A DNA stretch of 32,000 bases from Nitrosopumilus sp. (GCA_965205675.1 OZ242186.1:1243533-1275532); one strand, 5' to 3'. Shown: positions 18,156 through 30,379, numbered from the stretch's first letter. Notes: generated by a model from the sequence alone, not told the origin. Program-made: numbers and translations.

Positions 18156-18422
18156 CATGATCGGCTCTGAGCATATGTGTAGCGGTTCTTACATGACATG
18201 ATTGAGCAACCGTCAAAAGACAGCATGATAATATTTTTGGCGTACTATCTGATGAGGCAGAAAATAAACCGCACGCCACAGAAGAAGAGCCAGATAACAT
18301 ATTGGCATCAGGTGCAGGGCAGTATAATTATGATGTACAGCAGATACACCGAAAACGAGACAAAAAAGATTTTTGTGATTTTCATAAATGAGCAGAGTCG
18401 GAATTAACTCATACAAGACATA

Positions 18423-18539
18423 ATGGCAAATTACCATCACGTAAACAGACACAAGACAAAATGTATGCTTTGCGGCAAAATGTGTCAGAACAAAAAAGAG
18501 AAGCGAAGACATACTGATGAGTGCCACCGAATAGGATAA
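18423..18539 (+). CDS. small classical C2H2 zinc-finger protein (38 aa)
   Basis: MANYHHVNRHKTKCMLCGKMCQNKKEKRRHTDECHRIG has the C-x2-C-x12-H-x4-H spacing. Below the track cutoff. Confidence 0.4.
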   Translation: MANYHHVNRHKTKCMLCGKMCQNKKEKRRHTDECHRIG

Positions 18540-18585
18540 AGCATCTAATGCTTCACACAACAGATTGTTTTCACATAAAAAATAA

Positions 18586-18879
18586 TTGTATCCGGATCAA
18601 ATCAAAATTATAAAACAATTCATGCCAAAGTTTGGGTGTATTCAGAATCACATCATTAGATTTCTCAGGGAGTATAGAATAGCAGGTGTTGAAGACAGGA
18701 AATGCTCCGCAGAAATCCACGCCGTGAGAATTGGAGAGGACATATACGTGTATAACGGGAAACCGTTTGGATACAAATCCGCGTTTTGTGCTGATTTGGA
18801 ATGTTTTTTGAAGAACTTGGATGAATCATCAATCACACGATACATGGAATCACTCCCAAGGAGAAAATCCAGAAAATGA
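18586..18879 (+). CDS. hypothetical protein
   Basis: 97 aa from a TTG (ATG at codon 13). Ordinary charged composition. The competing minus ORFs read poorly. Confidence 0.45.
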   Translation: MYPDQIKIIKQFMPKFGCIQNHIIRFLREYRIAGVEDRKCSAEIHAVRIGEDIYVYNGKPFGYKSAFCADLECFLKNLDESSITRYMESLPRRKSRK

Positions 18880-18986
18880 ACAGGCACATTTTTTGCATCT
18901 CTAAGAATAAAACGACCGATGACCATCTCAAGGGTCTTGTTAGCAATTGTATCAAAATACAGATACGCGCAAGGTCTGTTGTATGA
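18876..18986 (+). CDS. micro-ORF (36 aa)
   Basis: ATGA overlap with the upstream stop. MNRHIFCISKNKTTDDHLKGLVSNCIKIQIRARSVV. Confidence 0.25.
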   Translation: MNRHIFCISKNKTTDDHLKGLVSNCIKIQIRARSVV

Positions 18987-19090
18987 AATATCAGGCGCTG
19001 CAAGACAAAGGCAACTGCAAACAATCTGTTGCAACACCTCTGTATAGTGATAAAACATATAATTGCCACAAACAATATCATACTGACTAG
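18983..19090 (+). CDS. micro-ORF (35 aa)
   Basis: ATGA overlap with the upstream stop. MKYQALQDKGNCKQSVATPLYSDKTYNCHKQYHTD. Confidence 0.25.
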   Translation: MKYQALQDKGNCKQSVATPLYSDKTYNCHKQYHTD

Positions 19091-19093
19091 AAT

Positions 19094-19186
19094 ATGACTG
19101 AAAAAGAACTGAAAAACATTGAAAAGATTGGCCATGAAATTATCGATGAAAACCAAGAACTTTTTGACATGCTTGCAGAGTGCTGA
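19094..19186 (+). CDS. micro-ORF (30 aa), candidate Doc antitoxin
   Basis: MTEKELKNIEKIGHEIIDENQELFDMLAEC is an acidic helical peptide. It ends 1 nt before an in-frame TTG of the Doc ORF (TGAATTG). Confidence 0.3.
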   Translation: MTEKELKNIEKIGHEIIDENQELFDMLAEC

Positions 19187-19586
19187 ATTGCAACTAGACG
19201 GAATTTTAGCATTACACAAAATAATAAAGACCAGATCCCCCCTACCTGTCAGTTCAGGTAAAGTTGATGAAGGAATATTGCAAGGCATAATACAAAAAAT
19301 GAATCTCAAACTGGAAGGATGCGAAAAATATCACTCAATATTCTCAAAGTCAGCATGCATTTTAGAGGGAATATCAAGACTGCATCCATTTACTGATGGA
19401 AACAAACGGACTGCACTATTATGCGCAATATCATACTTGCAATCAAATGGAATCAGGATTAATTTGAATACAAATGATATTTTGTATGTACAATATGTGG
19501 CATCGTGTCAGTATACAGATGAGCAGCAAATAGAGAAATTAATTGCAGAGATTGCACTGTGGCTATCCAACAAGGCAACTGCCTAA
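19134..19586 (+). CDS. doc: Doc (death-on-curing) / Fic-family toxin
   Basis: The Doc-type Fic motif HPFTDGNKRTALL is preceded by ..LDGILALHKIIK..G..DEGILQGI.., as in P1 Doc. The start is uncertain: ATG 19134, or TTG 19188, which gives a typical ~132 aa. Confidence 0.8.
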   Translation: MKLSMKTKNFLTCLQSAELQLDGILALHKIIKTRSPLPVSSGKVDEGILQGIIQKMNLKLEGCEKYHSIFSKSACILEGISRLHPFTDGNKRTALLCAISYLQSNGIRINLNTNDILYVQYVASCQYTDEQQIEKLIAEIALWLSNKATA

Positions 19587-19614
19587 AACAATTCCATCAG
19601 AATAACTAAAAATA

Positions 19615-27782: not shown

Positions 27783-27840
27783 AACGGCGCAAGAAGTGAA
27801 TCTGTTAATACATATGGCAGATTTTTATTAAAAATTTATC

Positions 27841-28050
27841 ATGGGGTGTCGTGAAACGTGCGATGTATACAAGGCAAAAAAACCATTCATGTCAAGCAGA
27901 TACTCTAATGGACAAAAGAGATGTTCTACATGCAGTATCTTCATTCATTGGGATGGAGTATTCTGTCCCTGTTGCAGCATGACTCTGAGAACTGGTCCGC
28001 GCAACGCCTCAGACAAGGCACGACTGTTATCAGCCAAACCGAAACCGTAA
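27841..28050 (+). CDS. small zinc-ribbon protein
   Basis: 69 aa with CSTC..CPCC and a basic tail. Confidence 0.5.
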   Translation: MGCRETCDVYKAKKPFMSSRYSNGQKRCSTCSIFIHWDGVFCPCCSMTLRTGPRNASDKARLLSAKPKP

Positions 28051-28112
28051 GGAAAACCAACTAATTTCTGGTATGTCTTGGCGATATTGAAAAACATCAA
28101 AAATCACATAGC

Positions 28113-28556
28113 ATGATATTTTTCGTACCTGACAAAAAATCAGATGATACGCAGCTCTTGGCAATTGCTGCATATCTGGAGCATACTCATAATATCCCCA
28201 AGAGTCAAATCAAAAAAGACTGGTATGTCCTGATAAATCCTAAAAGGCATAATATTTTTGGAATCACCCAACGTGTCGTTCCAAAACTGGTCCAAATAGA
28301 TACGATTATCCACAATCCGGACATCATAATACTTGACAAGCATTACAAACTTGCACATATCATTGAGCTTGACGGTTACTCTCACAAGACACAACAGGGA
28401 CTGCAAAAAACTGCAAAACGAAACCAGCACTATACACAATCAAAGATACCCTTTACCGTACTTGATGTTGAGGATTTGAAGCGTATTGGCAAAAGCTGGT
28501 TTGAATATATTGATGAGGCACTGCATGAAACCCTCGATTTGATCCAAAATGGATAA
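28113..28556 (+). CDS. PD-(D/E)xK nuclease-like protein (DUF559/Vsr-like, tentative)
   Basis: ..DIIILDKHYKLAHIIELDGYSHKT..KRNQHYTQSKIPFTVLDVEDL resembles the ..D..vvEvDG..H...D..R...L...G..v.R motif. Confidence 0.45.
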   Translation: MIFFVPDKKSDDTQLLAIAAYLEHTHNIPKSQIKKDWYVLINPKRHNIFGITQRVVPKLVQIDTIIHNPDIIILDKHYKLAHIIELDGYSHKTQQGLQKTAKRNQHYTQSKIPFTVLDVEDLKRIGKSWFEYIDEALHETLDLIQNG

Positions 28557-28788
28557 TTCCACCAAAAATCACTTTGTCTGTTGCGAAATTACAATGGATT
28601 GTCATATACAAGCAAAGACTATTTCTGAGGTCGTGAGCATGATAAAAGAAGCAACCAAAGTTTGCAGAATCTGATAAAAGAGCAGTCAAAAAAACATTTG
28701 CAGTATAGTTTTTTTGGATTATTGAAATGACTGTCGTTTCCATTTGTAATGGTAAACATGACTGCCGTAAAATCCTGTATGGCATTGC

Positions 28789-29187
28789 ATGACTGACTGC
28801 AAGCGCTGCAAGACTGTTATTTATTTTGAGAATAATCGCTGCTTTGATGCCAATGGCATACCTCATGACATCAGAGTGTGCAGTACCATTCCAAATCATG
28901 TGTGGTGTCCCCTACACCGAGAATTATTTTCTCAAAAAGAACCGTGTACGCACTATGGTAAATACGGATATGAGCCTGGACAGAACGAGGAATTTTTCAT
29001 TGCTTTGATCTATCAGAACTATTCGAAAGGTGACTGGTTTCTCAGAAGACACAAAACTTTCAGAGGTCCCATGAAAAAATCTGTCTGCAAAAAATGCAGT
29101 ACTCCAATACACAACATGAGTGAGAGACAGCAGGTCTTGCATGAAAAAATACATCTCAGTCAAAACTCGCTTGGAGAGTTTTTTTAG
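28789..29187 (+). CDS. cysteine/histidine-rich protein
   Basis: 132 aa with CKRC..C..H, CPLH and CKKC..H...H. Confidence 0.45.
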   Translation: MTDCKRCKTVIYFENNRCFDANGIPHDIRVCSTIPNHVWCPLHRELFSQKEPCTHYGKYGYEPGQNEEFFIALIYQNYSKGDWFLRRHKTFRGPMKKSVCKKCSTPIHNMSERQQVLHEKIHLSQNSLGEFF

Positions 29188-29231
29188 ATTTTCTGCACGG
29201 CTGTCTTTTTAATTAGACATATCTAAGACCT

Positions 29232-30161
29232 TTGGAATTTTCTGAAATATTTCTCTCAGAAGAGTTTTTAGCTGCACTTGTAATATTGTGTTTGATAGTT
29301 GTAATGAGTGATAAGACAGGAAACCGAGTTAAGATTGTTACTGCTATAATCTCCGCAATCGCCACGATATTCATTGCATTTCAAAGCAAGTTTATCGGTA
29401 TTGATGCAATAACGGCATTGTATGAGGATGACCCAGATCACATACTGTTTAGTGTATTTGAAATAGTCGCATCCGTTTCATTTGGCATATTTTTAATTCT
29501 GGCGATGGTCCCCGGCACGATGCTGCTGTTTTTTGTAATTGACAGAACAAGGGATAGAATTAAAACAAACAGTCTTTCTGTGTCGTTGCAAGACGAATCA
29601 AAACTGTTTCCTGGTGGGGTGTTGTACCTTGATGTAAAGTATACCGGTCGCATGTACATGGGTTATTTTACTGCTGATATCATTACACCTTTTGATGAGT
29701 ATTCAGTAAAATCAAAGCATTACAACAGCACAAAACAGTCTGGCACGCTTTGGGGGCGGAACAATGATACTTTTGGGTTAAAATGTGAGATACCTGATAA
29801 TTTCAAACCTGACAGATGCAAAGTTCTCATAAAAGCCAAATGTACAATGAAAATATTTGGAATTTTCTTACCAGTACAGTACACCATTCAAGAACAAGAG
29901 TTGGAATGTACAATTTGTGACGTTTTATCAAATACTGAGGAAAAATTATGCGCTTACGTTGATGAAAAAATAGTATCGGTCAACAAGAGGACAGATACAC
30001 TTGATGAAAAAATGAATAAAAGATTTGACGTGCTGGAAGAAAAGATTGAAAAATTACATGATATGATTTTAGATGAACCGCTGAGATCCCTTAAGATAAG
30101 ATACGCAAAAGGGTATATTACACGCGATGAATTCCTGTGGATCAAAAATGATTTACTCTAG
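29232..30161 (+). CDS. membrane protein with coiled coil and SHOCT-like C-terminus
   Basis: Three N-terminal TM helices, a coiled coil (DTLDEKMNKRFDVLEEKIEKLHDMI), and a C-terminal LKIRYAKGYITRDEFLWIKNDLL that looks like a SHOCT motif. TTG start. Confidence 0.55.
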   Translation: MEFSEIFLSEEFLAALVILCLIVVMSDKTGNRVKIVTAIISAIATIFIAFQSKFIGIDAITALYEDDPDHILFSVFEIVASVSFGIFLILAMVPGTMLLFFVIDRTRDRIKTNSLSVSLQDESKLFPGGVLYLDVKYTGRMYMGYFTADIITPFDEYSVKSKHYNSTKQSGTLWGRNNDTFGLKCEIPDNFKPDRCKVLIKAKCTMKIFGIFLPVQYTIQEQELECTICDVLSNTEEKLCAYVDEKIVSVNKRTDTLDEKMNKRFDVLEEKIEKLHDMILDEPLRSLKIRYAKGYITRDEFLWIKNDLL

Positions 30162-30379
30162 TCTGCACACGTCTTTTTGAAAATGACTCATTTGATAATT
30201 ATAATGTGGACCTGCTGAGAGTTGAAATCCCAATCTCCTGGTTTTCAAGTAGGTTATGTCAGGCGCGCCAATCTCTTTTTTATCACATTCAAATGTATAT
30301 ATTAAATATTTTCTGAAAATGCATCAAATCTCTAAAAACTAATATGAGCTGAAGAGTAAACGCCCATTGTATGACTGAA

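Follow-up and report, generated by a model that had tools for sequence, protein, structure and literature searches.

A block of genes at 18160-30200 of a 32,000-nucleotide stretch from Nitrosopumilus sp. (GCA_965205675.1 OZ242186.1:1243533-1275532; the whole stretch is called the window here) is very probably the module for replication, partition and regulation in one integrated conjugative element (ICE), ~77 kb long, which lies in the chromosome and runs roughly from 4.8 kb to 81.8-82.9 kb. Nitrosopumilus is the main marine genus of the ammonia-oxidising archaea. The source genome, G000, is a single contig of 2.01 Mb with 33.7% G+C, in which the window is G000:C1:1243533-1275532; positions above 32000 extend the numbering of the window, and the genome coordinate of a position x is 1243532 + x.

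The first line of evidence is gene order. A co-directional run of + strand genes extends from 3869 to 81773, well past the end of the window. Its left half holds a tyrosine integrase, an accessory part, an internal tRNA-like gene, a Doc toxin, a TFIIB homologue (transcription factor B, TFB) coupled to a ParB-like protein, a nucleotidase, the replicative helicase MCM and an iteron field. Its right half holds accessory genes, restriction-modification cassettes, pilus genes, a TrbL/VirB6-like candidate, VirB4, a VirD4-like ATPase and a TBP (Table 1). The same order recurs in three other Nitrosopumilus genomes (G333, G009 and G007), compared at the level of open reading frames (ORFs). VirB4 is single-copy in the G000 genome, and therefore there is one ICE only. 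The G+C content of the block, 39.3%, is a value reached by just 4% of the 12-kb windows of the genome.

The second line is gene content. Thaumarchaeal ICEs are defined by the pair VirB4 and VirD4 together with pilus-type and secretion components, among them FlaI/PilT, TadC, VirB6, VirB3, prepilin peptidase and pilins; each of them carries a TFIIB homologue, mostly directly 5' of ParB, in a coupling described as specific to thaumarchaeal ICEs (Krupovic et al. 2019, PMC6563490). The G000 element has an adjacent VirB4/TrbE-like and VirD4/TraG-like pair, in which the VirB4 match is strong and the VirD4-like match weak, above the Pfam TraG-D_C cut-off, and its TFB gene lies directly upstream of the ParB gene and overlaps its start.

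The original prediction described the block as a set of plasmid-type genes on the 5' side of a tRNA gene, with possible edges at 18125-18600 and 30162-30643, and considered a third element, an immobilised remnant or membership in a single large composite that also takes in the elements left of the tRNA. Gene order is conserved across both intervals in G333, G009 and G007, and therefore neither edge is a border. The composite, on the other hand, is supported, and it reaches ~81.8 kb with a conjugation apparatus. On this reading the undefined borders are settled: the block forms a module within a large conjugative element. The integrase island, odd tRNA, iterons and restriction-modification cassettes, together with the pilus genes of the stretch that follows, become one mobile unit.

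Related islands in other Nitrosopumilus genomes

The island of G333 (C1:419.9 to 299.5 kb) is colinear with 7.6-81.8 kb of the G000 region, with identities of 76% for MCM, 79% for VirB4, 73% for VirD4 and 55% for TBP. In G009 (C1:170.6 to 112.3 kb) we find, in order, the integrase (50%), TFB (43%), the nucleotidase and MCM (70%), then the iteron-flanking genes, the ATP-grasp gene, the winged-helix gene, the genes of 38691-45002, the pilus genes, VirB4 (46%), VirD4 (50%) and TBP. The VirB4/VirD4-like pair is thus kept in both genomes. The G007 island begins with the integrase (57%) and the left genes, has a TFB-like gene and a homologue of the 18586 gene, and passes straight from there to the homologue of the 25998 gene, the ATP-grasp gene and later genes; it is without Doc, TFB-ParB, the nucleotidase and MCM, and it holds TBP and VirB4. 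Integrase orthologues open the colinear islands of G007 and G009, and the integrase is the probable left-end gene of the ICE. Homologues of the left accessory genes follow in the same order at 419.9-408.2 kb in G333 and 513.7-545.3 kb in G007.

Onto this shared order mosaic additions are set that have no counterpart at the same place in G333 and G009. These are the cassette at 21853-22937, which is specific to G000 and also has no homologue in G007; a type III restriction-modification cassette, whose gene pair spans 30644-35169, with synteny resuming at 35786; and a copy of the insertion sequence (IS) IS3 at 64135-65210. Doc-TFB-ParB is missing from the corresponding position in G333, and in G009 a TFB is present there; no homologue of Doc stands at the equivalent position in G333, G009 or G007. 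Where the chromosomal neighbours of the islands can be read, they differ: the core block that precedes the integrase in G007 maps to 735 kb in G000, and the block before that of G009 to 2.0 Mb. In the streamlined relatives G069, G012 and G019, nothing that lies between 2 kb of the window and ~82.9 kb was found.

Two observations concern DNA shared with G333. The segment 54832-57721, a methylase gene and the gene adjoining it, is ~90% identical at the DNA level to G333:C1:373551-376438, with 65-79% in the rest of the ICE, which suggests that this segment was recently exchanged as a cassette between the two elements. Two short stretches shared by G333:C1:290092-291189 and genome positions 295626-298140 are 96-97% identical, against 65-88% for the other DNA that the two genomes share.

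The proposed replication, partition and regulation module

The original prediction named Doc, TFIIB-homologue, ParB-like, dNMP nucleotidase, MCM and ATP-grasp genes in the block, and Pfam identifies each of them. Every supported gene of the block is on the + strand, with ATGA-type overlaps at 18876, 21853 and 22125, as had been proposed.

In the element MCM, the Walker A, Walker B, sensor 1, arginine-finger and sensor 2 motifs are all intact. G000 carries a second MCM, encoded by the host mcm at genome 1777746-1779815 and 55% identical to that of the element; against all host MCMs of the genus, the element MCM is 52-54% identical. A large protein search returned ~37 clusters of the element type at 57-81% identity, the host type coming next at 51-54%, and the metagenomic relatives bear Nitrosopumilus or Nitrosarchaeum names. 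In a tree of 65 rows with an order-level outgroup and supports from the Shimodaira-Hasegawa approximate likelihood-ratio test (SH-aLRT), the element-type MCMs group in one clade (support 100, stem 0.66), with the family's host MCMs as its sister group (96), and the two nest within the order-level outgroup (99). The tree is consistent with an old capture of the gene from a host of the Nitrosopumilaceae lineage, followed by fast evolution; the exact branching point is uncertain because the stem is long. As for other archaeal MCMs borne by mobile elements, the protein is complete, has intact ATPase motifs, is additional to the host copy and stands on a separate branch.

The original prediction was to fall if the block were conserved in all related genomes and its mcm were the only chromosomal copy. 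The second, orthologous host mcm and the failure to find the block in most relatives searched speak otherwise. Element-type MCM occurs in 5 of the 301 family genomes, all five of which have a VirB4 homologue (74/301 overall, a tally that takes in the unpublished genomes G275, G295 and G322, on which no other claim depends). With MCM as the query for free forms, a scan of viral contigs gave one distant match (36%), and the plasmid collection PLSDB gave only MCMs that are 26-31% identical. Among relatives of the element-type MCM, P0013 and P0027 are 1052 and 1142 amino acids (aa) long and one has a LAGLIDADG domain (PF14528); some members of the clade probably hold inteins. G018 has an element-type MCM in fragments only, at C1:1265362-1269632 with 43-55% identity and an internal TAG; these are probably the decayed remains of a related element.

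Next to mcm lies the putative origin. The predicted iterons are present as seven 25-bp units at 25784-26008 with the core GCCAAACTACAA, plus dispersed copies, and repeat families D1, D3 and D4 were distinguished. The small gene, the iteron array and the 25998 gene are kept next to mcm in three genomes, while the core drifts from GCCAAACTACAA in G000 to GTTAAACTACAA in G333 and GTTAAACGACAA in G009. Conserved genes together with a drifting core are what would be expected of an origin with a cognate binding protein. The compact module of MCM, small gene, iterons and 25998 gene, conserved in three genomes, is a concrete candidate genetic tool; it has been proposed that such replicons could supply the tools missing for thaumarchaea (Krupovic et al., PMC6563490).

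The module opens with the small Cys/His-rich 18586 protein, whose homologues (70% in G333, 51% in G007, a tblastx match in G009) always stand just 5' of it. Doc carries the family motif HxFx(D/E)GNKR. Upstream of Doc no recognisable Phd/YefM-type antitoxin family was found, and the only candidate there is an acidic ORF of 30 aa at 19094-19186, itself without match. The nucleotidase homologues (72% in G333, 52% in G009) each stand directly 5' of the MCM gene, which the nucleotidase gene directly abuts in G333.

Homologues of ParB occur in 17/41 genomes of the genus, so we regard it as an accessory gene, and on this ground a host origin of ParB was considered and rejected. A ParB paralogue at genome 532325-533185 is 88-89% identical to the element ParB, with one in-frame TAG reported, and the large, IS-rich genomes of the genus carry ParB homologues in several copies, as accessory genes.

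Identity between the element TFB and the five host TFBs is 22-26%, against 43-44% with the TFB in the element of G009; the element TBP shares 29-34% with the three TBPs of the host. The original prediction read the TFB next to ParB as a sign that the element controls its own transcription. The pairing agrees with the ICE signature (PMC6563490) and the element does have a TBP as well, while the control itself stays conjectural. We also noted a box, (C/G)CTTTAAAT, ~25-35 nt before the start codons of the pilus and conjugation operons, with sites upstream of 38691, 41484, 46931, 49456, 51640, 58016, 66518, 76065 and 80572; in G333, G009 and G007 it is kept at the orthologous sites, with diverged sequence on either side. 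The motif CTTTAAA precedes 6/35 ICE genes against 17/1120 host genes, a motif picked post hoc that fails correction over all 7-mers. We treat the promoter box as a lead, supported by its conservation at orthologous positions. That the element TFB and TBP read (C/G)CTTTAAAT-box promoters as a private transcription system, coupled to a self-contained MCM-iteron replicon, is a bolder proposal to which we give a small but real chance. If true, marine ammonia-oxidising archaea would gain, as a genetic tool, their first defined autonomous replicon together with an orthogonal set of promoters.

From these genes we infer how the element could excise, replicate and transfer. The integrase would excise it as a circle. 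Its own MCM would load at the origin formed by the iterons, with the two small proteins encoded on either side as probable loaders, and would then recruit the host replisome, since the element encodes no polymerase or primase. ParB would aid segregation of the circular copy, and TFB and TBP would serve as the element's own transcription initiation pair. The Doc and ParE toxins and the several restriction-modification systems would penalise loss of the element, and the type IV pilus-like genes with the VirB4/VirD4 ATPases would pass its DNA to a new cell.

Borders and competing explanations

The left border is most likely between 4776 and 4827, and the right border is between 81773 and 82939. 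In G007 the core chromosome ends 44 bp before the integrase start, and the far end of the island is beyond the 110 kb examined. The first genes common to the streamlined relatives are a matrixin-like peptidase gene at 82939 on the right and EF-2, ending near 2014, on the left; a metallo-beta-lactamase gene at 81798-82808 is inside the island in G333.

Flanking the left end, the essential EF-2 gene stands alone as a core block of 2.2 kb, with an IS66 copy on each side, the two being identical and in the same orientation (window 1-3488; genome 1239084-1240497). The neighbours that EF-2 has in relatives map hundreds of kb apart in G000, and therefore the chromosome is heavily scrambled by IS elements. 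Directly 5' of the integrase, 4551-4776 is the decayed remnant of a host gene of 219 aa that is intact in G069, with codons 18-52 on the - strand and codons 51-73 flipped to the + strand. This fragment was tried as a guide to the other border and abandoned, the rest of that host gene being absent from the genome.

The long-variable-arm tRNA-like gene, on whose 5' side the original prediction placed the block, is by comparison internal to the ICE and not a chromosomal border. G333 has three tandem long-arm tRNA(GAA)-like copies and a partial one between the ParB-methylase gene and the 18586 homologue, and G007 also holds a partial copy. A 22-nt attachment (att)-like repeat occurs in this region only at 12052 and at 18024, where it overlaps the 3' end of the tRNA, and G007 has one copy; as had been predicted, no copy lies inside the block, and no repeats flanking the block were found. 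The repeat may record a smaller element accreted into the ICE-borne tRNA, or a tRNA duplication as in G333.

Several points weigh against a single conjugative element. No att pair bracketing the 77 kb was found at the island ends, the EF-2 3' end or the integrase start, where only chance-length matches occur, and no precise empty site could be reconstructed from the relatives G069 and G007, though the distribution of the element is patchy; we attribute both failures to the scrambling of the flanks and the genome by IS elements. Published thaumarchaeal att sites are as short as 8 bp. No integrase homologue was found within the 160 kb examined in G333. The VirD4 assignment consists of weak profile matches, with no match to solved structures. 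Of a ParABS system the ParB_N domain is present, no ParA-type partner ATPase was matched among the element ORFs scanned, and the element ParB may act without ParA. Finally, the 22-nt repeat could mark an older insertion, and the element may have grown by accretion.

Some of these points would also suit an immobilised, decaying ICE remnant, inherited vertically and no longer excising or transferring. The missing att pair, the rearranged flanks with EF-2 isolated between identical IS66 copies, the IS3 and the restriction-modification cassettes inserted in the element, the G333 region examined without an integrase and the G018 genome with mere MCM fragments are all consistent with it. We nevertheless consider a remnant unlikely: the integrase, MCM, FlaI, TadC-like, VirB4 and VirD4-like genes are all long uninterrupted ORFs with the MCM ATPase motifs kept, element-type MCM is sparsely distributed in the family, the chromosomal surroundings of the related islands in G007 and G009 differ, and the 2.9-kb methylase segment suggests recent exchange.

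It is still less likely, at long odds in our judgement, that the block is a separate, integrase-less, MCM plasmid-like element of ~12 kb beside a chromosomal tRNA, mobilised in trans or using another site. No ORF of 18160-30200 has a recombinase or transposase domain, in agreement with the original prediction; the G+C content is distinct from that of the genome, and MCM plus iterons would suffice as a minimal replicon. G007, moreover, has the neighbouring genes without Doc, TFB, ParB, nucleotidase and MCM, and therefore the module can be gained or lost as a unit. Synteny largely refutes a separate element, however, as gene order runs past both proposed edges in G333 and G009 and the tRNA is itself part of the element in G333; flanking repeats are missing, and the MCM query returned no free or smaller version from the plasmid or viral-contig collections. 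The further idea that we are dealing with ordinary paralogues of the host, an additional TFB and a second MCM on the chromosome, unconnected with mobility, has practically no chance, for although thaumarchaea do possess several paralogous TFBs and TBPs of their own, searches of the streamlined relatives did not find the block, its MCM belongs to a long-stemmed clade apart from all host MCMs, and it is linked to an integrase, toxins, restriction-modification systems and conjugation genes.

Other genes of the element

We therefore return to the single ICE and its remaining genes (Table 1). Homologues of the accessory genes at 26544-30161 occur in G007, G009 and G333. The original prediction counted at least six zinc-finger ORFs in the block; paired Cys/His motifs are indeed present in several small ORFs, also in 18423-18539 and in the TFB ribbon, and it is by these motifs that the ORFs are assigned. 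The proposed DUF559-like nuclease, presumably 28113-28556, was not borne out: it has no Pfam match even at E 5 and none to solved structures, and only its motif ELDGYSH is reminiscent of that family.

Beyond the window, the ICE encodes two ~1000-aa proteins with terminal hydrophobic anchors, and small membrane proteins at 80572-81270. Neither a prepilin peptidase nor pilins were identified among the ICE genes. The 226-aa product of 41484-42164 (L015:11484-12164), kept in G333 and G009, begins with a zinc ribbon and gives a faint signal for TFIIB repeats; it may be another TFB-like factor, strongly diverged. A second TFB-ParB pair at 41484-43122 was considered and discarded, the TFB-like signal being faint (Pfam 0.03; BLASTP 0.007 to the element TFB) and a ParB signal absent. 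The tRNA-Leu(TAA) gene, the second tRNA inside the element, can be read either as cargo or as an old integration target.

Table 1 Features of the element in window-style coordinates, with the evidence for each assignment
Feature	Position	Strand	Evidence or remark
Tyrosine recombinase (integrase), 557 aa	4827-6500	+	Pfam Phage_integrase 2e-8; NCBIfam XerC/XerA-like ~1e-6
Left accessory part of ICE	6700-17937	+	Pfam; homologues in G333, G007
ParE toxin	12983-13321	+	Pfam
ParB_N-MT-A70 methyltransferase fusion	15761-17209	+	Pfam
Long-variable-arm tRNA-like gene, GAA anticodon	18042-18124	-	ARAGORN; Rfam tRNA 44.8 bits
Small Cys/His-rich protein, 97 aa	18586-18879	+	Opens replication module
Doc-type toxin (Fic fold)	19119-19586	+	Pfam Fic/Doc 9e-11; motif HPFTDGNKR
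Element TFB (TFIIB homologue), 264 aa	19615-20409	+	Pfam TFIIB repeats 1.3e-17; zinc ribbon weak
ParB-like protein, directly 3' of TFB	20379-21248	+	Pfam ParB_N 2e-11; HTH_ParB weak
5'(3')-deoxyribonucleotidase (NT5C/HAD)	21288-21860	+	Pfam NT5C 1e-12
Two-gene cassette, 91 and 270 aa	21853-22937	+	Within exact 23-bp direct repeat D12 (21840, 22960)
Element-type MCM replicative helicase, 692 aa	22973-25051	+	Pfam MCM_N, OB, P-loop (1e-80), lid
Putative origin	25081-26450	+	Small genes 25081-25392 and 25998-26450 flank iteron field
R2K ATP-grasp protein	26544-27335	+	Pfam R2K_3 4.5e-7
Zinc-ribbon protein, four CxxC	27336-27782	+	Cys motifs
Zinc-ribbon protein	27841-28050	+	Paired Cys/His motifs
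ORF, motif ELDGYSH	28113-28556	+	
Zinc-ribbon protein	28789-29187	+	Paired Cys/His motifs
Membrane protein, SHOCT-like end	29232-30161	+	
Inserted type III restriction-modification cassette, start	30261-32000	+	mod from 30644; Pfam N6_N4_Mtase, then res
Winged-helix gene, repeated	35786-38653	+	
TrbL/VirB6-like polytopic candidate	47520-49370	+	Atlas lead only, 0.92-0.94
Methylase	55053-56636	+	
FlaI/T2SSE-type ATPase	58662-60329	+	Pfam 6.5e-29; NCBIfam FlaI 2e-66
TadC/UpsF-like platform protein	60223-62211	+	Atlas 0.97, all matches T2SSF; NCBIfam 5e-31
tRNA-Leu(TAA)	63767-63854 (L049:18767-18854)	-	Beside IS3
IS3	64135-65210		Inside element
Type IIG restriction-modification gene	72739-75207	+	
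VirB4	76065-77906	+	Pfam TraG P-loop 3.9e-15; structure 4ag5 2.4e-13; NCBIfam CD1110 7e-39
VirD4-like ATPase	77907-80459	+	Pfam TraG-D_C 23.5 bits (cut-off 22); CD1115 4e-9
TBP	81267-81773	+	4e-12

Comparison with known mobile elements

Parts of the element recall other archaeal mobile DNA. The conjugative plasmids of Sulfolobales (pNOB8 type; cited in PMC6563490) likewise have VirB4/TrbE-like and VirD4/TraG-like ATPases, ParB and no relaxase; they are free plasmids of Crenarchaeota with other replication proteins, a distinction drawn here by description and not by sequence. MCM-bearing archaeal plasmids and proviruses, such as the 18-kb plasmid of Thermococcus nautili (KF527230), likewise use a captured MCM as their main replication protein, but the plasmid MCMs in PLSDB are distant from that of G000, whose clade is sister to the host clade of Nitrosopumilaceae. 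Closer in this respect are the cryptic thaumarchaeal elements that encode MCM (ThaMY3-E2, NitGar-E6 and NitEve-E3; PMC6563490), in which a full-length MCM is also second to the host copy; these are without conjugation genes, which the G000 element has.

The element belongs to the already described kind of thaumarchaeal ICEs (NCAV2-E1/E2, NitIsl-E3, NitEve-E6, NitGar-E3, NitVie-E3 and NitNCS1-E3; PMC6563490; Abby et al. 2018, PMC5797428). It is of the same size class, the published median being 64 kb (PMC6563490), and shares with them the VirB4 and VirD4-like pair, a FlaI-type ATPase, a TadC-like platform, the TFIIB homologue directly 5' of ParB, a tyrosine integrase, the lack of a relaxase, and restriction-modification and toxin cargo. 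It differs from them in carrying a TBP and a long-arm tRNA(GAA) gene and in that its att sites are undefined here. Two additions to the kind follow from the comparison. The hosts named for published ICEs, in the visible supplement entries (Nitrosocaldus, Nitrosotalea) and in the text (Nitrososphaera) of PMC6563490, set the ICEs that can be placed by host in these genera, whereas the host here is Nitrosopumilus. And the ten published ICEs replicate with PolB, Orc1, UvrD, topoisomerase IA or primpol-S3H, MCM being reported only in non-conjugative cryptic elements (PMC6563490), whereas the replication module here is MCM with an iteron field. Nitrosopumilus is thereby added to the hosts of thaumarchaeal ICEs, and an MCM plus iteron replicon to their replication modules.

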